Of a stretch of 64,000 nt of DNA, positions 24,636 through 53,372 are shown one piece after another (position 1 is the first letter of the stretch; each line of letters opens with the position of its first letter). The position numbers and the translations under genes were made by a program. Source of the stretch: Clostridiaceae bacterium (GTDB lineage: Bacteria; Bacillota; Clostridia; Oscillospirales; Acutalibacteraceae); the NCBI GenBank assembly GCA_016280595.1, contig JAEEHB010000034.1:1073-65072 (forward strand), in the 5' to 3' direction. The notes under the pieces were generated by a model, which saw only the letters and a list, made by a program, of their open reading frames with translations, searched no databases and was not told where the DNA came from.

Positions 24636-25508
24636 ATGAAAAAATATTCTCTTTTTTCAAAAGCGTTATCAATATTGCTGACCGTTGCGATTCTTTCCAG
24701 CTGTCTTGCCGTAATGTCTTATGCTGATGAAGAATATGACGCATGGGACGAAGGAATGACTATGTGGTATTGGAAAGAAGATAAAGGTGGACACTCTCTT
24801 CTGAGAGTTGGATTCAGCGAGAAATATGTGAGATTCGGAGAGAATGTTACGGTTGAAGTCTTTTTCGGTAAAGAATCAAAAACCTTTTCCGGGGATGAAC
24901 TGCTTTCAGTACGCGAGGAAGGATATTACTATGACGCTGTAGAACTAGAACAGGCTATCTATATAAAAGACGCTGTTTCCTGTGCTCCTTCAAAGGTAGT
25001 TGTTGCTGAAAACTCGGTTTACGATGCCGAAGAAAACGGAAACAGCCCTATCACAATTGAAGGATACAGCGATAGAGAGTTCTATTTTTTTAAAATACAA
25101 AATGTTGAGGACTCAGTCTATCTTGATGAAACAGAGTGTTATATAGGAGACGGTATACGTTGCAACTCACCTATTCCGGTTGATTTTTATATGAACGATG
25201 AACTTGTATCACAAAATACCAGTTCGTTTGAATACTTAACGGAGAATGAAGGCAAATACGTATTCAGCGCAAAAAAAATGGGGATTGTTTTGTATACAAG
25301 AGAGTTTACGGTGAAAAAACTGACTTCAGCAGATAAAGTCAAGCATTACCTGGAACTGATATTATTTGCACCTGTTTACTTATTTGTTGAATCGGTTCTC
25401 GCCGCTATAACTTTTTCATTTATTTCCACGATCATTGGCACGGCCGGCATTTTCGGCCCGTTTGTTGCGATACGTGATCTGTTTGAAAAATTATTCAGTA
25501 ATAACTGA
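24636..25508 (+). CDS. Hypothetical secreted, membrane-anchored protein, AT-rich
   Basis: Signal peptide, acidic beta-rich body, C-terminal hydrophobic segment. Confidence 0.65.
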   Translation: MKKYSLFSKALSILLTVAILSSCLAVMSYADEEYDAWDEGMTMWYWKEDKGGHSLLRVGFSEKYVRFGENVTVEVFFGKESKTFSGDELLSVREEGYYYDAVELEQAIYIKDAVSCAPSKVVVAENSVYDAEENGNSPITIEGYSDREFYFFKIQNVEDSVYLDETECYIGDGIRCNSPIPVDFYMNDELVSQNTSSFEYLTENEGKYVFSAKKMGIVLYTREFTVKKLTSADKVKHYLELILFAPVYLFVESVLAAITFSFISTIIGTAGIFGPFVAIRDLFEKLFSNN

Positions 25509-25518
25509 AAACAGATAA

Positions 25519-25554
25519 CAAAACAGCAGGTAACAGAGGTTACCTGCTGTTTTT
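25519..25554. terminator. Bidirectional terminator closing the heptose operon
   Basis: AAAACAGCAGGTAAC-loop-GTTACCTGCTGTTTT. Confidence 0.85.
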
Positions 25555-25565
25555 CTTTATGTATA

Positions 25566-26858
25566 TTAAGAAAATATATCTTTGCAGAATGAGAGCAGAT
25601 CGGGATAGTCCGCGAGTCCTTCGGCTTCGCTTTCCTGCTTTCCGCAGGAGAGCAGTACGGACTTGCATCCGGCGTTTATGCCTGCCTGCCTGTCACTCAG
25701 CGCGTCACCCGCCATATAACTTGAAGCGAGGTCTATGTTGAGGTCTTCAGCTGCTTTCAGCAGCATACCGGGAGCGGGCTTTCGGCAGTTGCATTTTATT
25801 TTGTACTCGGGTCTCTCTCCCGGATGACCCGGTTCGGGATGATGCGGGCAGTAATATATCGCGTCAAGATACGCACCCTCACGCCCGAGCAAGTCTTCAA
25901 GCCTTGCGTTTATAGCGTCAAGTTCTTCAAAGGTGCAATCGCCCCTCGCTATCACCGCCTGGTTTGTGGCGAGTACGGCGAGCATACCGCTGTCATTTAT
26001 CATTTTGAGCGCCTGCGCTGCGCCGGGCAGAAGTTCAATATCATCCTTATTTGTGATATAGCCCTTATAAACATTCAGCGTGCCGTCCCTGTCAATGAAT
26101 ACGGCTCTCTGTTTGTTTCTGAGATTTCTTTTTGCGGGAATGCCGAGTGAAATATCTTTTTCCGCTTTTTCAAGGCGGGCGGGTGTACCCGCGTCGTGCA
26201 CATATTCGGTGCATCTGTAGGCGAATAATCTGCCGCTGTTTACGGCGGGCATAAGAATATCGCGGTCAAGGTCTTTCGCGCCGCCGGGCTCAAGGTTGCG
26301 GAGAAACTCGCGTGAGAGAATCTGTATTCCCGCGTTTGAAAGATTTTCGCAGCAGTCAGTTTTGCTTTCCTTAGGCACAAAAGCGCTTATCCTGCCGTCT
26401 TTGCCGCAGATAATAGCGGTGCTGTCCGCCGGGTGCGAATTGGGGTGGGCAAAGAGAGTTGCGAGAGCGCCCGACTGCCTGTGAAAAGCGTACATTCTGT
26501 CAAGAGAAAAATCAAAAATCAGGTCTCCCGAGCAGAGCAGAATATCCTCGGCAAACCCGAGCAGGGCGAGAGCGCCGCCCGTGCCGAGGGGCTCACTTTC
26601 CTCATAAAACGAAATGTCTATGCCGAAACCGGAGGAAGAAGCAAAGTAGTCTTTTATCACTTCGCTCTTGTATCCGGTGACTATCACAGCCTCGCTTATT
26701 CCCTCTCTCGCAAGTATTTTCAGCTGGCGCGAAAGAATTGCTTCACCGCAAACGGGAAAAAGCGGCTTGGGCAGCCCCGCGCTTATCTGCGCGAGACGCG
26801 TGCCTTCACCGCCGGCAAGTATTATCGCTTTTTTGATGTCAGATGATTTCATTTTCAT
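25566..26858 (-). CDS. Fused sugar-1-phosphate nucleotidyltransferase (HddC-like) + heptose-1,7-bisphosphate phosphatase (GmhB-like)
   Basis: ILAGGEGTRL...PKPL, EPLGTGG; HAD motif FIDRDGT; Zn site CPHHP...CNCRKP. Confidence 0.9.
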   Translation of the reverse strand: MKMKSSDIKKAIILAGGEGTRLAQISAGLPKPLFPVCGEAILSRQLKILAREGISEAVIVTGYKSEVIKDYFASSSGFGIDISFYEESEPLGTGGALALLGFAEDILLCSGDLIFDFSLDRMYAFHRQSGALATLFAHPNSHPADSTAIICGKDGRISAFVPKESKTDCCENLSNAGIQILSREFLRNLEPGGAKDLDRDILMPAVNSGRLFAYRCTEYVHDAGTPARLEKAEKDISLGIPAKRNLRNKQRAVFIDRDGTLNVYKGYITNKDDIELLPGAAQALKMINDSGMLAVLATNQAVIARGDCTFEELDAINARLEDLLGREGAYLDAIYYCPHHPEPGHPGERPEYKIKCNCRKPAPGMLLKAAEDLNIDLASSYMAGDALSDRQAGINAGCKSVLLSCGKQESEAEGLADYPDLLSFCKDIFS

Positions 26859-27819
26859 ACATTAGAACGGTGCCGCTCTTTTCAAATTCAAACTTTTCAA
26901 ACGTATATTCCTTGAACGCTTCCCTTACCGTCTGCTGATCTTTCGCCGGCACATAGAGCAGCATATATCCGCCGCCGCCCGCGCCGAGTATCTTGCCGCC
27001 GAGAGCGCCGCTTTCTTTTGCTCTGTTATAAAGTCTGTCTATTTCGTCGGTTGTGATGCTGCCGGAAAGTTTCTTCTTGAGTGTCCACGAGCGGTCGAGC
27101 AGATAGCCGATATCGTCAAGATCGCCGTGAAGAAACACCCTGTGCGCCTCGTCAACCGTCTGCTTCATTTCGTCAAGGAACGAGATTGTTTTGGGTATAT
27201 TATCCTGCTGCGCTTTTGCGACTTCGCCCGAAAAATGAGTGAAGCCCGTGAACATAAGCATCAGATTTCTGCTGAATTCCTTGGCTCTGACAGGGCTGAT
27301 TCTGAGAGGCTCAACCCTGTAGCCGTCTTTGTCAAAGTAGTATCTGTTGAGACCGCCGAAAGCGGATGCGAGCTGGTCCTGCACTCCTCCCGCTTCGCCG
27401 CACAGGTCTCTTTCGATATGAATTGCCTGCTTTGCGATTTCCATTTTGTCGGGATAAAGCCCCTTCATCGCGCTCAGGCCCTGCACAAGGGCAACGGCAA
27501 ACGCCGAACTTGAGCCTATGCCGGAGCAGGCGGGCAGATCCGCATCGTAGTTAATCTGAAGACCGTCATAGGGGATGTAGCCGAGAGCCGCCTTCACGAG
27601 CGGATGGCTAAGTTCGTCAAGCGAGTTGAAGCGCTCGATTTTTGAGTAGGTGAGCTGATTTTTATAACTGAAAATCTGCGGCAGATCGCGTATTGTGACA
27701 TAGCAATACTTATCTATGGTGGTAGATATTACACTGCCGCCGTATTTTGAAAAGTATTCATAAAAATCTGTTCCGCCGCCGAAAAATGAAATGCGGAACG
27801 GCGCTCTGACTATAAGCAT
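26839..27819 (-). CDS. hddA: GHMP kinase, D-glycero-D-manno-heptose-7-phosphate kinase-like
   Basis: RAPFRISFFGGGTDF, LPACSGIGSSS, GVQDQ, GGKILGAGGGG. Confidence 0.85.
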   Translation of the reverse strand: MLIVRAPFRISFFGGGTDFYEYFSKYGGSVISTTIDKYCYVTIRDLPQIFSYKNQLTYSKIERFNSLDELSHPLVKAALGYIPYDGLQINYDADLPACSGIGSSSAFAVALVQGLSAMKGLYPDKMEIAKQAIHIERDLCGEAGGVQDQLASAFGGLNRYYFDKDGYRVEPLRISPVRAKEFSRNLMLMFTGFTHFSGEVAKAQQDNIPKTISFLDEMKQTVDEAHRVFLHGDLDDIGYLLDRSWTLKKKLSGSITTDEIDRLYNRAKESGALGGKILGAGGGGYMLLYVPAKDQQTVREAFKEYTFEKFEFEKSGTVLMYENEII

Positions 27820-27820
27820 A

Positions 27821-28702
27821 TCAGTTCTCCGTAAAGGTCAGTTTATCGGTAATGCCGAGAGTTTTTTTCAGAAGGGCATTGCTCATAACGGAAGTGTCCG
27901 CACGCCTGTCTTTAAAAAACTTTTTGCCTTCTTCAAAAGTAATCGGCTTTATAAGATATTCGGGCAGACCGTTTGCTCTCGCGATTTCCAGCCCGATTTC
28001 ATACTTGGTGTAAGGTGTATCGCTCGCGATATTTATAAAAGCGGGCAGGTTTTCTTTATCGAGCGAAGCGAGTTTAAGCAGAAGGGCCGCGACTGTTTTG
28101 TAAGAGAGGGCACTGCGCCTCATACCGTCAATCATTTCGGTGCTTTCGCCTTTTCCGAGTTTCAGGCAGATATTATCGTAAAAACTTGTTTTGCCGCTGA
28201 GAAGCGATTTGCCCGTCATAAACGGAAGCCTGGCGCAGGTGAAGCCGTGAGAGGCAACTATATGCTCCGCTTCCGCTTTCTGGTCGCCGTAAACATTTAC
28301 CGGGCAGAGGTCGTCGGACTCCGAAAAAGCGGGTATATTCTCCGGGTTTTCGCCGTAAACACAGTCGGTGGAGGCGAAAAACAGTTTGTCAATGTCCGGC
28401 ATAATCTCAAAAAATCTTTCGAGCGCGGTAACATTTATTTCCCAGGCGGCGTGGTGATTTGAAAACACTCTGTCAATGTTATGCTCAGCCGCAAGGTAAA
28501 ATACAACCGGCTTTTCGCCTTCGCAATGCGAGGCGAGGTTTGCAAGGTCCTCTTCTTTTGTCACATCGCACTTTACCGCCTGCACTCCGGGCACGGAAAT
28601 GCGGTTTTCCGTGCGGTAGGTACATATTGTTTTTTCTCCCGAACGCACGGCGGCTTCAGCTATGTAACTGCCGAGAAATCCGCATCCCACAATCAGAATC
28701 AT
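27821..28702 (-). CDS. RmlD-like NDP-4-keto-sugar reductase
   Basis: GCGFLG, STDCVYG, YGDQK (YxxxK). Confidence 0.8.
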   Translation of the reverse strand: MILIVGCGFLGSYIAEAAVRSGEKTICTYRTENRISVPGVQAVKCDVTKEEDLANLASHCEGEKPVVFYLAAEHNIDRVFSNHHAAWEINVTALERFFEIMPDIDKLFFASTDCVYGENPENIPAFSESDDLCPVNVYGDQKAEAEHIVASHGFTCARLPFMTGKSLLSGKTSFYDNICLKLGKGESTEMIDGMRRSALSYKTVAALLLKLASLDKENLPAFINIASDTPYTKYEIGLEIARANGLPEYLIKPITFEEGKKFFKDRRADTSVMSNALLKKTLGITDKLTFTEN

Positions 28703-28706
28703 TTTC

Positions 28707-30614
28707 TTACCTCAAATAGTTGATTTCGTTTCTGCCGTAAACCGTTCTTCCCCTGCGTCTGCCGAACCACACGGTTTCTTTAGCGTATTCGGGCAGGCTG
28801 TCATACACGGGCGACGGCTTTATCTCTATTTTTCCGTCATATTTTTCAAGCACGGGCTTTTCGCCCTTTATTATCATATCAAAAAACTTCGGGAAATCAT
28901 AGCCGGGCGTCAGCACTATGCCTTTGTCAAACGGCTTTCTGAGCACGGCTTTCTGATATTCGAGCAGAGCGGCAAAGAGCCCGCTTTCAATATCATATTT
29001 TTTGATGTACGGGAGAAGTTCACTCATAAACCCGTCGAGATGAGTCACCGCCTCAAGGAAGGCGCCCTCCTCAAAAAACCAGGTTACATGGCCGAATTCG
29101 GGTTTATGATAATTCCAGTCGCCGGCGAGGGAGTTTTCATATTTATCCATGAAATTCATCCACAGGTTATGCACGGCTCCCGGTGTATTCATTATGTAAT
29201 CGAGAAGACCCGAATAGAAATCATAAAAACTTACGCCTTTTTCCTCGTGCAGATACATAGCAAAACACCTGAGGAAACCGAGACTGTGGAAGCACTGTGT
29301 GCACACGGAAAACAGGTTTGCCTGCACCCAGTCCTCGTCATTCATCGTGGAGGTTGAACGCACCAGGTAGGAATACTCGGGTATCTCCTCGTTTTTGTCG
29401 GGCGCGCTGTGAATATGATTGAAGCCGACTTTGATGACTTTTATCTTGTTTTCTTTTATGAACTCGGGCCTTGACAGATCCGAATTCGGAAGCATTTCAC
29501 AGTGATAAACGCTCAGCGAATTATGCTGCCCGTTTTCCATAAGCTTGCAGATGCCCTGACAGAAACTCTCTTTAGTTTCGCCGGGAAGCCCGAGAATAAG
29601 TTCTGAGTAGGTGGGTATGCCCGCCTCGTTGTACTTTTTCATAAGGCTCGAGAAATGTTCCATCGTCAGATTCTTTCTGCCGATTTTTTCGAGCGCGGCA
29701 TCCGAGAGAGTCTGGTACGCCATGGTTGCGCCCTTATCCATACCCTCGCTGTTAAGCAGACTGCAGATTCTGAAAACGCGGTCTGCACTGTTTTTTTCAT
29801 AGCAGGGTCTGAATACCTGCGGAAAGCCGTATTTTCTTTTTGCGGCAACAAGTGCCTGCGCTATTTCGTAGTCTCTGTCAAACATACCGAAGTTTGAATC
29901 GGCGCAGAAGCAGTAGGCGATTTTGTGAAGGGCGAGCCACTCGATTTCCGCGAGCACTTTTTCCATAGGGAAAAATCTCATTTTTCTGCCCGTGACCCAG
30001 TCGCAGTAAGCGCAGTTGTAGGGGCAGCCCCTGTTGGTTTCAAGCACGCTGAGAAATTCCATACCGGGATTTTCGTCAATTATTCTGTCAAACACTCCGG
30101 TAAGATAAGGGGAGGGATAGGGTATCTCTTTCCCTTCGGCGCATTTCTTCGGTGTCTTTACAACCTTGCCGTTTTCTCTGTAAGCGATTGAAGGCACAAG
30201 TGAGTATTCGCCGCGCGGAATCTTTCTGAGCACTTCGGCAAATACGGTTTCACCCTCGCCGAAGGTGAGAAAATCTATGTAGGGCTCACTTTCGAGCATC
30301 GAGGCGTCCTCGTCAACGCTGTGACCGCCGAAGGTGATAATGCAATCGGGGTATTTTTCGCGCACCGCCTTTGCGAGCGCCTTGTCATACTCGGTATTCC
30401 ACACACTGCACGAAAACGCGACAAGATACGGATCCTTTATTTTTTCAAGAGCATCCGCAATCTTTTCGCGTCTGAATATTATATCGGCGAAATCATATTC
30501 TGTTTTCAGGTCAGCCTGTGACAGGCAGTAGGCAATCAGGGTGCCGGCGGCATAGGGGAGGTAAACGGAGCCGTCAAACTCAAAGCCCACCTGGACAAAA
30601 TATACTTTTTTCAT
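28707..30614 (-). CDS. Cobalamin-binding radical SAM protein
   Basis: N-terminal B12-binding-type domain (FSCSVWN, FGGH, GEGE); ETNRGCPYNCAYCDW (CxxxCxxC); DSNFG; LILGLPGET. Confidence 0.88.
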   Translation of the reverse strand: MKKVYFVQVGFEFDGSVYLPYAAGTLIAYCLSQADLKTEYDFADIIFRREKIADALEKIKDPYLVAFSCSVWNTEYDKALAKAVREKYPDCIITFGGHSVDEDASMLESEPYIDFLTFGEGETVFAEVLRKIPRGEYSLVPSIAYRENGKVVKTPKKCAEGKEIPYPSPYLTGVFDRIIDENPGMEFLSVLETNRGCPYNCAYCDWVTGRKMRFFPMEKVLAEIEWLALHKIAYCFCADSNFGMFDRDYEIAQALVAAKRKYGFPQVFRPCYEKNSADRVFRICSLLNSEGMDKGATMAYQTLSDAALEKIGRKNLTMEHFSSLMKKYNEAGIPTYSELILGLPGETKESFCQGICKLMENGQHNSLSVYHCEMLPNSDLSRPEFIKENKIKVIKVGFNHIHSAPDKNEEIPEYSYLVRSTSTMNDEDWVQANLFSVCTQCFHSLGFLRCFAMYLHEEKGVSFYDFYSGLLDYIMNTPGAVHNLWMNFMDKYENSLAGDWNYHKPEFGHVTWFFEEGAFLEAVTHLDGFMSELLPYIKKYDIESGLFAALLEYQKAVLRKPFDKGIVLTPGYDFPKFFDMIIKGEKPVLEKYDGKIEIKPSPVYDSLPEYAKETVWFGRRRGRTVYGRNEINYLR

Positions 30615-30621
30615 ATGTGTG

Positions 30622-30993
30622 TCAATCCGTCAGTATATCCTTACTCCCGTCCTCTCTTTCAACCGCTTTAGTGTAAAGGACGACGAGATTTGTATTTTCA
30701 AGATATTCAAATGTGTGGCGCACACCTGCGGGCAGGGTAAACATTTCGCCCTGTGCGAAGATTCTTTCTTCCTCTTCGTCTTCAAGGCGCGCCGTTACCT
30801 TTACCTTACCCGAGCCGACATAAAAGGTTTCGTCGGACATGGCGTGATAGTGCATATTGCCTCTCACCGCGCCTTTTTCTGTGTAAACAAAGTTAACCTG
30901 CTCATAGCCCGAGTGAACAAGCTGAGCGAGGGTGCCGCGCTCGTCGGTAAAGGTAAAATCGGGTTTTACAATCTTAATAAGCATATCAGACAT
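30622..30993 (-). CDS. Cupin-fold NDP-sugar epimerase/isomerase
   Basis: DERG, RGNMHYH...E and H cupin motifs. Confidence 0.75.
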   Translation of the reverse strand: MSDMLIKIVKPDFTFTDERGTLAQLVHSGYEQVNFVYTEKGAVRGNMHYHAMSDETFYVGSGKVKVTARLEDEEEERIFAQGEMFTLPAGVRHTFEYLENTNLVVLYTKAVEREDGSKDILTD

Positions 30994-31921
30994 TCCCGTA
31001 AAATGAGTTTTTGATTATCGAATAGGCTTTTATCAGCTCGGCAATTCCGTCCTCGAGCGTGTACTGTGTCTTATATCCGAGTTTTTCAATCTTTTCGTTT
31101 GATACAATGTAATTGCGCTTGTCGGGGTCGGAGTTTACCTGGCTTTCAATGTAAGTGAAATCGGGAATCTGCTCCTTGATTTTTGCGCAGAGCTCGAGTT
31201 TTGAAATGTTCGCGCTGCTCAGGCCGCAGTTGAAGGTCTGCCCGTTCATTCTGTCAAAGTTTTCAATCGCAAAGATAAATGCGCGCGCGGCGTCTCTCAC
31301 GTGCAGAAAATTCCTTTTGAAATCGCCCTCGAATATCACATTGAATCTGTCAAACACGGCGCGGTAAACGAAGTCGTTTACAAGCAGGTCCGTGCGCATT
31401 CTCGGTGACGCGCCGAAAAGGGTAGCAAAGCGGAAGGTAACGGAGTTGCCCGCATCAAGCACCGCTTTTTCAGCCTCCATCTTGGTTTTGCCGTAAAGGG
31501 AAATCGGAGCAATCGGAGATTCCTCGGTGCAGTATTCCTGACCCTGACCGAGACCGTAGCCGCTGTTGGTGCAGGGGAAGATTATTTTCTGCCCGGGAGA
31601 GCGGAGTTTTATTATAAGTTTTACGGCGTCGCAGTTAATACTCTTGGCGGCGGTTTTGTCTTTGAGGCAGGCGGGGAAACCCACTATCGCCGCGAGCGGA
31701 ATTATGATATCTTTGCCGGGCAGAAGTCCGGCTACGGTTTCTTCATCGCGGCAGTCGCCGTTTACAACCGCAAGATTTCTGTCGGCACAGCAGTCAAGTA
31801 TGGATGCCTGCCTGTAAAGGAAAGAATCAAGCACGGTAACCCTGTGCCCCTTTGCGAGAAGCATGGGCACAAGCACGCTGCCTATATATCCGGCGCCGCC
31901 GGTAATGAGAATGTCTGCCAT
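30986..31921 (-). CDS. NAD-dependent NDP-heptose C4 dehydrogenase/epimerase (Cj1427-like SDR)
   Basis: Start MADILITGGAGYIG at 31921; DIIIPLAAIVG, TNSGYG, CTEESP, YGKTK, SPRMRTDLLVNDF, GLSSAN and DPDKRNY match C. jejuni Cj1427 as I recall it. Confidence 0.8.
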   Translation of the reverse strand: MADILITGGAGYIGSVLVPMLLAKGHRVTVLDSFLYRQASILDCCADRNLAVVNGDCRDEETVAGLLPGKDIIIPLAAIVGFPACLKDKTAAKSINCDAVKLIIKLRSPGQKIIFPCTNSGYGLGQGQEYCTEESPIAPISLYGKTKMEAEKAVLDAGNSVTFRFATLFGASPRMRTDLLVNDFVYRAVFDRFNVIFEGDFKRNFLHVRDAARAFIFAIENFDRMNGQTFNCGLSSANISKLELCAKIKEQIPDFTYIESQVNSDPDKRNYIVSNEKIEKLGYKTQYTLEDGIAELIKAYSIIKNSFYGNV

Positions 31922-31972
31922 AATGTCTACGCGGAAAACCGCACTCCGTTCTCTACATATTTTTACAAGCAT

Positions 31973-32001
31973 ATAATATCATAGTAAATAATAAAAAGCA
32001 A
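31973..32001 (-). promoter_or_regulatory. Sigma-A promoter of the heptose operon
   Basis: TTGCTT-17-TATTAT with extended TG on the minus strand. Confidence 0.6.
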
Positions 32002-32018
32002 CCACACATATAAATCAA

Positions 32019-32047
32019 AAAAGGCGGAGGGGTTTACCCTCCGCTTT
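32019..32047 (-). terminator. Terminator after the lipoprotein gene
   Basis: AAAGGCGGAGGG...CCCTCCGCTTT with a U-run on the minus strand. Confidence 0.75.
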
Positions 32048-32064: not shown

Positions 32065-32985
32065 TTAATATTTGAAATCTTTGTAGATGATATGAGTGGT
32101 GCCGGTCGCCGTGCCGGAGCCGATGCCGATATCTATCGCAACGCTGATGTCGTATGTTACGGTAAGACCTACGAGTTCGCCGCTGACTGCGTCTATTTCG
32201 GCAACTATCTTTGCGTTTTTATAGTTTTCTTTGATGTCCGCGCCTTCATAGGTGCCCGCAATCGCGTCATAGATTACTTCGGCTGTTTTGTGGTCGTAGT
32301 AATTCTTGTCTTCCTTACCTACGCAGATGCCGCACTTGTCAATCGGAGCGGAGGTGCTTCTTTGATTTTTGTTGCCTACGCTGCTGCCGGGTTTAACATT
32401 GATTATGAGTGTGTAAACTCCGCCGTCCTGCTCGCACTTCGCGGAGATGATGTCCGCTTCGCTGAGAGTGCTCTTGCGCAGATAATGTCTCTTTGCGTCG
32501 CCGTCCCAGTTGCCCTTAGCAACTTTTTCGCTGTATTTGTTATCTTCGCCTATGCCGACAAATTTTTCAACAAGGCCTTTGAAGGGCTTGAGGGCAACGC
32601 TCATATCGAAGTTTGCGCTGTCGGTGTAGCGCTCTTTTGAGAAGCCCGCCTTCTTGCTGTAAGCGTTATTGACGGCAGTGTTGTAGAGATCGATGATTTC
32701 TTTTGTGTTCTGGGGAGCGGCAACAACGGATGCTTCCTCTGCCGCTTCACTTGATTCTTCTTCTGCCGCGGAGGTTTCGGCTTCGCTCTTGCTCTCTTCT
32801 TCCTTCGCGCTTTCCTGAGTAACCGCCTCTGTTTCGCTTTCTGAAACGGCTTCGGTTTCGGTGTTTATCTCTTCGGTAACCTGTTCATCCGAAGAGGGTT
32901 CGGTGACATCTTCGCCCTTCTTGCCGCAGGAGGCAAATGCGAGCACAATAACAAAAACGAGCAGAACAGATAATAACTTTTTCAT
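32065..32985 (-). CDS. Lipoprotein of unknown function
   Basis: ATG 32985 after AAGGAG; lipobox FASC; long E/S/T/A linker. Confidence 0.75.
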   Translation of the reverse strand: MKKLLSVLLVFVIVLAFASCGKKGEDVTEPSSDEQVTEEINTETEAVSESETEAVTQESAKEEESKSEAETSAAEEESSEAAEEASVVAAPQNTKEIIDLYNTAVNNAYSKKAGFSKERYTDSANFDMSVALKPFKGLVEKFVGIGEDNKYSEKVAKGNWDGDAKRHYLRKSTLSEADIISAKCEQDGGVYTLIINVKPGSSVGNKNQRSTSAPIDKCGICVGKEDKNYYDHKTAEVIYDAIAGTYEGADIKENYKNAKIVAEIDAVSGELVGLTVTYDISVAIDIGIGSGTATGTTHIIYKDFKY

Positions 32986-33058
32986 GATTCCAATCTCCTT
33001 TGTTTTCAGAATTGCAATTCCCTGCCGCAAATAGCAACAGGGAATTTTTTGTGTTTAT

Positions 33059-53239: not shown

Positions 53240-53245
53240 AACTCA

Positions 53246-53372
53246 ATACTTAAGGGGTGCTGATTATTCGGCTGAGATTATACCCATGAACCTGATCCCG
53301 GTAATTCGGGCGTAGGAACAGAGTATCACTGATTATCAAAGCACCCGGAAAACAGCCGGGTGCTTTTATTTT
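53246..53372 (+). promoter_or_regulatory. TPP riboswitch with intrinsic-terminator expression platform
   Basis: GGGGTGC...GCTGAGA..ATACCC..GAACCTGATC.GGTAAT..GGCGTAGGAA core; terminator AGCACCCGG..CCGGGTGCTTTT; upstream of thiT. Confidence 0.93.

Follow-up and report, generated by a model that had tools for sequence, protein, structure and literature searches.

The DNA considered here is a stretch of 64,000 nucleotides, hereafter the window, from the genome assembly of a Clostridiaceae bacterium placed in the Acutalibacteraceae (GenBank GCA_016280595.1, contig JAEEHB010000034.1, positions 1,073 to 65,072 of the forward strand). On its minus strand, at 25566-31972, lie six open reading frames (ORFs) that form an operon in which predicted enzymes of guanosine diphosphate (GDP)-heptose synthesis are combined with a radical S-adenosylmethionine (SAM) enzyme that depends on cobalamin. 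The first ORF in the direction of transcription (30986..31972, 328 aa) codes for an extended short-chain dehydrogenase/reductase (SDR) that resembles Cj1427 and is predicted to be a GDP-heptose C4 dehydrogenase. It is followed by a small cupin (30622..30993, 123 aa), predicted to act on a 4-keto sugar nucleotide as either a C3 epimerase or a 3,4-ketoisomerase, and by the radical SAM enzyme itself (28707..30614, 635 aa), a TokK/CysS-like protein of the orthogroup we call rA and a predicted C-methyltransferase. The last three ORFs encode an RmlD-like extended SDR, the predicted keto-reductase (27821..28702, 293 aa); a GHMP sugar kinase resembling HddA, the D-glycero-D-manno-heptose 7-phosphate kinase (26839..27819, 326 aa); and a fusion protein (25566..26858, 430 aa) in which a putative sugar-1-phosphate nucleotidyl(guanylyl)transferase (residues ~10-236) precedes a GmhB-type heptose-1,7-bisphosphate phosphatase (residues ~250-418).

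The ORFs are closely packed: the first two overlap by 8 nt and the last two by 20 nt, and the three junctions between are gaps of 7, 4, and 1 nt in that order. A bidirectional intrinsic terminator with a 15-bp stem (25520..25553, both strands) ends the operon as well as the convergent gene at 24636-25508. At the other end, a separate terminator at 32024-32044 closes the upstream lipoprotein gene, and just after it a promoter-like site can be read by eye on the minus strand (31973..32001), made up of TTGCTT, a 17-nt spacer, and the extended -10 element TGA-TATTAT. A sigma-70 consensus scan listed no promoter in the 5' gap of the operon because the -35 hexamer of this site matches at 3 of 6 positions only. 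The site overlaps the first SDR ATG, at 31972, and for this reason the true start is more likely the ATG at 31921 (MADILITGGAGY), which gives a protein of 311 aa, the same length as the orthologous ORFs in relatives; no good Shine-Dalgarno sequence lies close to this proposed start. Base composition is even over the operon region. An earlier, sequence-only reading had described six tightly coupled minus-strand genes with a promoter and a strong terminator, and the coordinates, junctions, and hairpin agree with it, the promoter being seen by eye only. The Pfam and NCBIfam domain content likewise bears out its gene calls.

Enzymes of the operon

Residues 20-327 of the leading SDR align with residues 4-311 of PDB entries 6VO6 and 6VO8 (E 1.2e-107, 363 bits, ~58% identity over 308 residues), and the protein scores 105.7 bits on the Pfam Epimerase model. 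Orthologs that are 62-83% identical occur in 41 related loci. We take both PDB entries to be Cj1427 of Campylobacter jejuni, an identification that fits the depositors' name; Huddleston et al. (2020) reportedly described 6VO6 as this enzyme. With 6VO6 so identified, the closeness of the SDR to Cj1427 that the sequence-only reading had noted is borne out by the alignment. The function of Cj1427 has been described, including a tightly bound NADH that is recycled by α-ketoglutarate in a ping-pong mechanism (PMC10680097). The second SDR of the operon, encoded by the fourth gene, scores 70.9 bits on RmlD_sub_bind and 48.8 bits on the rmlD equivalog model, which has a cut-off of 224. Its GxGxxG (GCGFLG) and YxxxK (YGDQK) motifs are intact, and no Cj1428-like match was found in the PDB. 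It is plausibly a reductase of its own subfamily, distantly RmlD-like, and its orthologs in 22 related loci always stand in the gene order "SDR-cupin-...-rA-...-RmlD-HddA."

The kinase finds its best NCBIfam model in HddA, at 165.7 bits against a cut-off of 600. Its best PDB matches range from E 1e-41 to 6e-37 and are headed by 4usm and 4usk, deposited simply as "putative sugar kinase" and presumably WcbL; a putative heptose 7-phosphate kinase (4n3o) and a heptose 1-phosphate kinase (3k85) are further relatives. The C-terminal half of the fusion protein falls just below the cut-offs of two GmhB models (156.2 bits against 178 and 145.5 against 149.6), exceeds those of the HAD-IIIA and histidinol-phosphatase domain models, and matches Escherichia coli GmhB (2gmw, E 1.6e-36). 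The N-terminal half reaches 78 bits on the HddC model, which has a cut-off of 300, and 121 bits on a mannose-1-phosphate guanylyltransferase model; with a PDB match to GDP-mannose pyrophosphorylase (7d72, E 6e-27), it is closer to these enzymes than to HddC. An ortholog of the fusion from the second of the two gene orders described below scores 200 bits on the HddC model.

The cupin exceeds the Pfam cut-offs for Cupin_2 and for PF14667 (33.2 bits against 28.7) and matches residues 245-350 of Cap5F, its cupin domain, in the PDB (E 8e-5). From these two matches together, PF14667 would appear to be the CapF cupin domain. No RmlC-family or FdtA match was found in Pfam, and no RmlC or Cj1430 sequence match in the PDB. 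Four residues, H48, H50, E55, and H93, are invariant in an alignment of 37 cupin orthologs. In Foldseek comparisons, the AlphaFold model (pLDDT 95.3) is closest to the ketoisomerases QdtA, FdtA, FdtD, and WlaRA (TM-score 0.77-0.80) and then to RmlC-type epimerases (about 0.7), and H48-x-H50 stands at the position of FdtA H49/H51, as judged from the names of mutants in the PDB. The reaction given for the CapF cupin is the C3 epimerisation of a 4-keto sugar (PMC9978623). Size, fold (TM-score about 0.8), the position of the HxH motif, and sequence similarity to CapF thus ally the operon cupin with FdtA/QdtA and the Cap5F cupin, all of which act on nucleoside diphosphate (NDP)-4-keto sugars. Unlike in FdtA and QdtA, to which it is 14-20% identical, the substrate would be a GDP-heptose and not a dTDP- or UDP-6-deoxyhexose, and no aminotransferase follows the cupin. 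The model and its neighbors predict an enzyme of NDP-keto-sugars, for which 3,4-ketoisomerase and C3 epimerase are equally likely activities.

Together these enzymes invite comparison with the GDP-D-glycero-L-gluco-heptose pathway of the C. jejuni HS:2 capsule, in which GmhA, HddA, GmhB, and HddC are followed by Cj1427, Cj1430, and Cj1428. Common to both, as far as predicted, are a GHMP kinase, a GmhB phosphatase, a guanylyltransferase-type NTP transferase, a Cj1427-like C4 dehydrogenase, and the logic of oxidation, isomerisation, and reduction. In contrast to HS:2, the operon has no GmhA, its HddC and GmhB are fused, and a cobalamin radical SAM enzyme is inserted; it uses a 123-aa CapF/FdtA-like cupin instead of the RmlC-like Cj1430 and an RmlD-like instead of a Cj1428-like reductase, and its host is a Gram-positive gut anaerobe with no capsule assembly genes nearby. 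The sequence-only reading had proposed this logic of oxidising, isomerising or epimerising, and reducing, and it persists as a prediction from the gene families (Cj1427-like SDR, cupin, RmlD-like SDR). A correction to it is that the cupin is not orthologous to Cj1430, nor the reductase to Cj1428; the cupin is CapF-like by sequence and FdtA/QdtA-like by fold.

The closest solved relatives of rA are TokK (7kdx, E 2.5e-93, residues 2-543) and CysS (9n1b, E 5.5e-51). Both its B12-binding domain (PF02310, 42.0 bits) and its Radical_SAM domain (PF04055, 44.8 bits) are above cut-off. On the KedN5-family model it scores 248.7 bits over residues 18-381 only, which is below the cut-off of 700, so that it belongs to a sister family and is not a member of the curated KedN5 subfamily. 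The motif CPYNCAYCDW lies at residue 197 (Cys-X3-Cys-X2-Cys-X-Trp), equivalents of TokK Trp76, which lies under the corrin, and of W215 are aligned, and D-S-N stands at the place of TokK D-A-N. Motif definitions predicting TokK-like radical methylation have been published (PMC9204698, PMC12931638), and TokK and CysS are cobalamin-dependent radical methylases that add methyl groups successively to sp3 carbons (PMC9204698). With TokK and ThnK, which carry out carbapenem C6 alkylation, and with CysS, which acts on the alkoxy groups of cystobactamids, rA shares about the same length and a domain order of B12 Rossmann domain, radical SAM barrel, and C-terminal domain. It differs from them in that identity is ~40% or less and the C-terminal domain has diverged. 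Unlike these enzymes of antibiotic clusters, rA lies in a nucleotide-sugar operon, that is, in primary metabolism of envelope type, and is one of five old paralog groups in a single genus. The family-specific C-terminal domain spans residues 464-620 and contains the stretches YDFY, WFFEE, and AKETVWFGR.

Judged by its resemblance to TokK, ThnK, CysS, and KedN5, which favors C-methylation over an OxsB-like rearrangement, rA most likely carries out C-methylation, possibly iteratively. The earlier proposal of tailoring by a class B radical SAM enzyme survives in this TokK/CysS-type form; its suggestion that the enzyme is GenK- or OxsB-like does not hold by sequence, as OxsB is absent from the PDB sequence matches at E 1e-3. 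Class B does include the non-methylases OxsB, HpnJ, and BchE (PMC9204698), and the match to the KedN5-family model is both below cut-off and confined to residues 18-381, leaving the C-terminal 250 aa family-specific. Another radical reaction on the sugar, such as an OxsB/HpnJ-like ring contraction or rearrangement, an epimerisation, or a dehydration, nevertheless seems improbable to us, since the close solved relatives that were found, TokK and CysS, are both radical methylases, and the TokK residues associated with methyl transfer are kept, namely the hydrophobic Trp below the corrin and the one that follows the Cys loop (PMC12931638). For C-methylation of a sugar, a chemical precedent is provided by GenK/Fms7, which act on C6' of aminoglycosides, and by Fom3, which acts on cytidylyl-2-hydroxyethylphosphonate: these are class B methylations of a carbinol carbon on a sugar or a nucleotide-activated substrate. 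GenK/Fms7 and Fom3 belong to a different class B sequence cluster from TokK-type enzymes (PMC9204698) and are not among the close relatives found for rA, and their substrates are pseudo-oligosaccharides or a CMP-phosphonate, not GDP-heptose.

Distribution and dispersed paralogs

In the protein database, more than 120 clusters reach 62% or higher identity to rA, and all of them come from metagenomes. A scan of species-representative genomes gave 78 related loci, all in uncultured Acutalibacteraceae, Oscillospiraceae, or Clostridia of ruminant and other animal guts. An rA ortholog is present in 73 of the 78, and its neighbors were counted within 9 kb. At least one of HddA, the cupin, HddC-GmhB, and the SDR lies near rA in 65 of these 73 loci, and at least three of them do in 57. 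Linkage of radical SAM homologs to heptose genes elsewhere had been set beforehand as one of the points on which the sequence-only reading could be refuted, and those 65 loci show it. At E 1e-200, no close rA ortholog was found outside the genus in a sample of 200 genomes covering 30 families and 121 genera of the order. Within the genus, 13 of the 24 genomes sampled carry such an ortholog.

Two gene orders recur in these clusters, which contain from one to six TokK-like genes. In architecture 1, the SDR and cupin are followed by an optional block of rE, a family 2 glycosyltransferase (GT2), rB, and rC, then by rA, optionally two polytopic membrane proteins, the RmlD-like gene, and HddA, with HddC-GmhB adjoining; rB to rE are the paralogs of rA described below. 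The window operon is a minimal form of this architecture, as are loci L029 (UBA1236) and L030 (a metagenome-assembled genome [MAG] from reindeer), and its six-gene order is identical in two other species of the genus (L017/L029 and L018/L030) at 55-83% protein identity. In architecture 2, HddA, the cupin, HddC-GmhB, and rA are followed by one to four paralogs, the GT2, and the SDR, and there is no RmlD-like gene. Of the eight rA loci that lack heptose genes, three are different, L043 and L048 among them. In these two, both from rumen MAGs (region L043:1869-18312), the rA ortholog is 62% identical and has no heptose genes within 9 kb; it is accompanied by a sugar aminotransferase of DegT/EryC1 type, a GDSL-like protein, a carbamoyltransferase, a DUF5989 protein, a polytopic membrane protein, and a repeat surface protein of 2314 aa. 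This is again a sugar-tailoring setting for rA.

The location of the island varies. A block of GNAT, two M42, GalK, VTT, and 2-hydroxyacid dehydrogenase genes is conserved in the source genome (contig C18, 1232-7229) and in related loci (L059-L105), and the heptose/radical SAM island comes directly after it in many of the species. In the source genome, nothing related follows the block, and the core operon sits between serA and tsf; as the site differs, the island has moved within the genus. In architecture 2 the 2-hydroxyacid dehydrogenase stands beside HddA, and it was considered as the α-ketoglutarate recycler for the Cj1427-like enzyme. We discarded this idea as a matter of synteny only, since the block is kept on contig C18 without the cluster.

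Five orthogroups emerge from a tree of 219 TokK-like proteins; support is 0.95-1.0 for four of them and 0.3 for the fifth. Each is represented exactly once in the source genome, by rA in the window, by rB on contig C22, and by the genes rC, rD, and rE, which stand in tandem on contig C6. The tandem (C6:16674-22660; L013:12675-18661) lies behind a divergent TetR gene and its products are 37-43% identical to rA; after rC-rD-rE comes a GMP-synthase-C/PP-loop protein, and no sugar genes adjoin. The rB locus (C22:15147-23244; L014, L015) holds, in order, a DUF5058 protein with 7 transmembrane helices, a protein with 4 such helices, rB, a GT2, a 237-aa unknown protein, a GGGtGRT-family protein, and an MBOAT acyltransferase. 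This GT2, which follows rB, has 257 aa and shares 55% identity with the GT2 seen in 33 clusters; among the 73 rA loci, 30 have such a GT2. Of the solved structures, the dolichol-phosphate mannose synthase (DPMS) 5mlz, which uses GDP-mannose, is closest to it, and no transmembrane anchor is predicted. As in systems where DPMS/Ppm1, GtrB, CsbB, or ArnC work with GT-C partners, polytopic membrane proteins co-occur with the GT2, which is nearest to the Pyrococcus DPMS, a user of GDP-sugars; unlike in those systems, it is without a predicted anchor, and it is encoded outside the window. The C22 locus is probably the part of the same system that loads the sugar onto a lipid carrier and transfers it. 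A comparable split, with the heptose core on one contig and rE-GT2-rB-rC on another, recurs in one further genome at least (L075 and L104). To call the operon "stand-alone," as had been done from its sequence, is thus misleading: four paralogs and a DPMS-like GT2 lie at two other loci of the source genome and are clustered with the heptose genes in relatives. The window operon is best seen as the core of a dispersed system.

A candidate pathway to a C-methylated heptose

On homology and gene linkage, we think it fairly probable that the operon makes a C-methylated, epimerised GDP-heptose for an envelope glycan. By the functions of their families, the kinase would phosphorylate D-glycero-D-manno-heptose 7-phosphate at C1, the GmhB domain would remove the 7-phosphate, and the transferase domain, acting after both, would form GDP-heptose; the sedoheptulose-7-phosphate isomerase step would come from outside the operon. 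The SDR, given its ~58% identity to Cj1427, would oxidise C4 to give GDP-D-glycero-4-keto-D-lyxo-heptose. As its fold and HxH...E...H residues suggest, the cupin would then work through an enediol on the keto sugar, either inverting C3 in the manner of CapF or shifting the keto group to C3 in the manner of FdtA/QdtA. In rA, whose homology to TokK and CysS and cofactor motifs point this way, a 5'-deoxyadenosyl radical would abstract a hydrogen and methylcobalamin would supply the methyl group for an sp3 carbon that is not activated. Our best guess for the site, drawn from the analogy of GenK and Fom3, is the exocyclic carbinol carbon C7 or C6, and methylation at C7 would yield a sugar of 8-deoxy-octose type. 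The RmlD-like SDR, judging from its motifs, would reduce the remaining keto group.

Several observations weigh against this proposal. The matches to the HddA, HddC, and GmhB models are all below the NCBI curated cut-offs, so that the sugar could be a different one (an octose or a hexose) and the nucleotide is likewise an assignment from homology. No GmhA/SIS gene occurs in the operon or among the 20 recurring annotated gene families of the 78 related loci, and 23 of 24 genomes in the genus carry a GmhA-like SIS gene, cluster or no cluster; the only one in the source genome (contig C19) scores 129 bits against a cut-off of 209. Reduction is not a step common to all clusters, since architecture 2 has no RmlD-like reductase. 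The substrate of the methylase might be a lipid-linked sugar or the final glycan. Finally, CobS, CbiC, and a cobalamin riboswitch were not found in the source genome, which is 78% complete.

The first two of these observations bear on the starting sugar. The pathway may begin from another sugar, such as an octose as in lincosamide biosynthesis or a hexose, or may use a nucleotide other than GDP, or the cupin may itself be the missing aldose-ketose isomerase; we give this whole set of options a slim chance. In their favor, all three activation modules are below curated cut-offs, GmhA is absent from every cluster, and the cupin has the full metal-type His-His-Glu-His set and lies between HddA and HddC-GmhB in architecture 2. 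Cupin sugar-phosphate isomerases carry such a set of residues, and it was this set together with the absence of GmhA that led us to consider the cupin as the sedoheptulose-7-phosphate isomerase. That role is less likely, as the fold matches listed are enzymes of NDP-keto-sugars and a few artificial metalloproteins, with no phosphosugar isomerases among them. Against another starting sugar, the best matches of each module are heptose enzymes and the SDR is ~58% identical to a GDP-heptose-specific dehydrogenase.

The stage at which rA acts can be argued from the arrangement of its paralogs. It is possible that rA methylates a later intermediate, namely polyprenyl-phosphate-linked heptose, the finished glycan, or an acceptor, and that the other enzymes of the operon yield a plain epimerised GDP-heptose as in Campylobacter. 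The trio that oxidises, epimerises, and reduces is self-sufficient in C. jejuni (PMC10680097), rB to rE adjoin the DPMS-like GT2 and polytopic membrane proteins and not nucleotide-sugar enzymes, and the module rE-GT2-rB-rC is found away from heptose genes as well (L103, L104; C22 and C6 of the source genome). Still, we regard late methylation by rA as unlikely: rA is almost always flanked by nucleotide-sugar genes, with the cupin or HddC-GmhB immediately before it; in architecture 1 the RmlD-like gene lies downstream of it, in some cases beyond two membrane-protein genes. In the window, moreover, rA is translationally coupled to its neighbors, with gaps of 4 and 7 nt, in an operon that has no glycosyltransferase or membrane protein.

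On the proposed reading, the operon would represent the minimal core of a variable system of heptose enzymes and TokK-like methylases in one uncultured genus of the Acutalibacteraceae, in which rB to rE and the GT2 probably methylate the sugar further and load it onto polyprenyl phosphate for an envelope acceptor. A bolder version, which we put forward as doubtful, is that rA and its four dispersed paralogs work on a single heptose scaffold to give a multiply C-methylated or alkyl-branched sugar of C8 to about C12, loaded by the GT2 on polyprenyl phosphate and displayed on the envelope, with the number of methylases (one to six) varying the surface sugars from species to species. Diversifying glycans in this way, by extending carbon chains through radical chemistry, is not known to have been described.

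Such chemistry would depend on a supply of corrinoid. Each genome of the genus carries at least five genes for radical SAM enzymes that depend on cobalamin. CobS was not found in the source genome or in four relatives (G018, G009, G012, and G022), which include 100%- and 95%-complete genomes; CbiC was sought in the source genome only. A cobalamin riboswitch is present in G022 alone of these five. The lack of detected cobalamin synthesis genes implies import, and the genus is probably a corrinoid auxotroph that relies on uptake.

C-methyl branches on bacterial sugars normally arise through enolate chemistry on keto sugars or through thiamine enzymes. In the literature, we found no description of a cobalamin radical SAM enzyme in a GDP-heptose pathway, many subscription papers being outside the search, and the earlier remark that no characterised pathway with this combination is known in Clostridia agrees with this. 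The enzyme families and the nucleotide-sugar logic are known; their combination appears to be new. If the proposal is correct, radical C-methylation extends from antibiotic tailoring to the nucleotide-sugar and envelope metabolism of gut anaerobes, and the structure of surface glycans becomes tied to the supply of corrinoid, as no sign of cobalamin synthesis is seen in the genus itself. The window operon has one methylase and, as predicted, every enzyme from heptose 7-phosphate to the reduced product, which makes it the simplest form in which the system could be reconstituted, and it could fix the substrate, site, and order of steps for clusters of one to six methylases in dozens of uncultured species of ruminant and other animal guts.

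Flanking genes and other features

The operon is set among housekeeping genes, with rpsB, tsf, and a hypothetical gene on one side and, on the other, the lipoprotein gene, serA-like and serC-like genes, aspS, hisS, gyrA, and gyrB. Genes for a glycosyltransferase, a flippase, or GmhA are absent within ~10 kb of the operon. Scanned with Rfam, the window yielded a thiamine pyrophosphate (TPP) riboswitch alone, and the operon leader is without a riboswitch; the TPP element, at 53243-53336 on the plus strand (RF00059, 61.4 bits), is far from the operon and unrelated to it. Neither immediate neighbor belongs to a Pfam family. The one upstream (32065-33030, minus strand) is an apparent lipoprotein with the lipobox FASC and an acidic Ser/Thr/Glu-rich linker, and the convergent gene on the plus strand (24636-25508) encodes a secreted protein with two C-terminal membrane helices.

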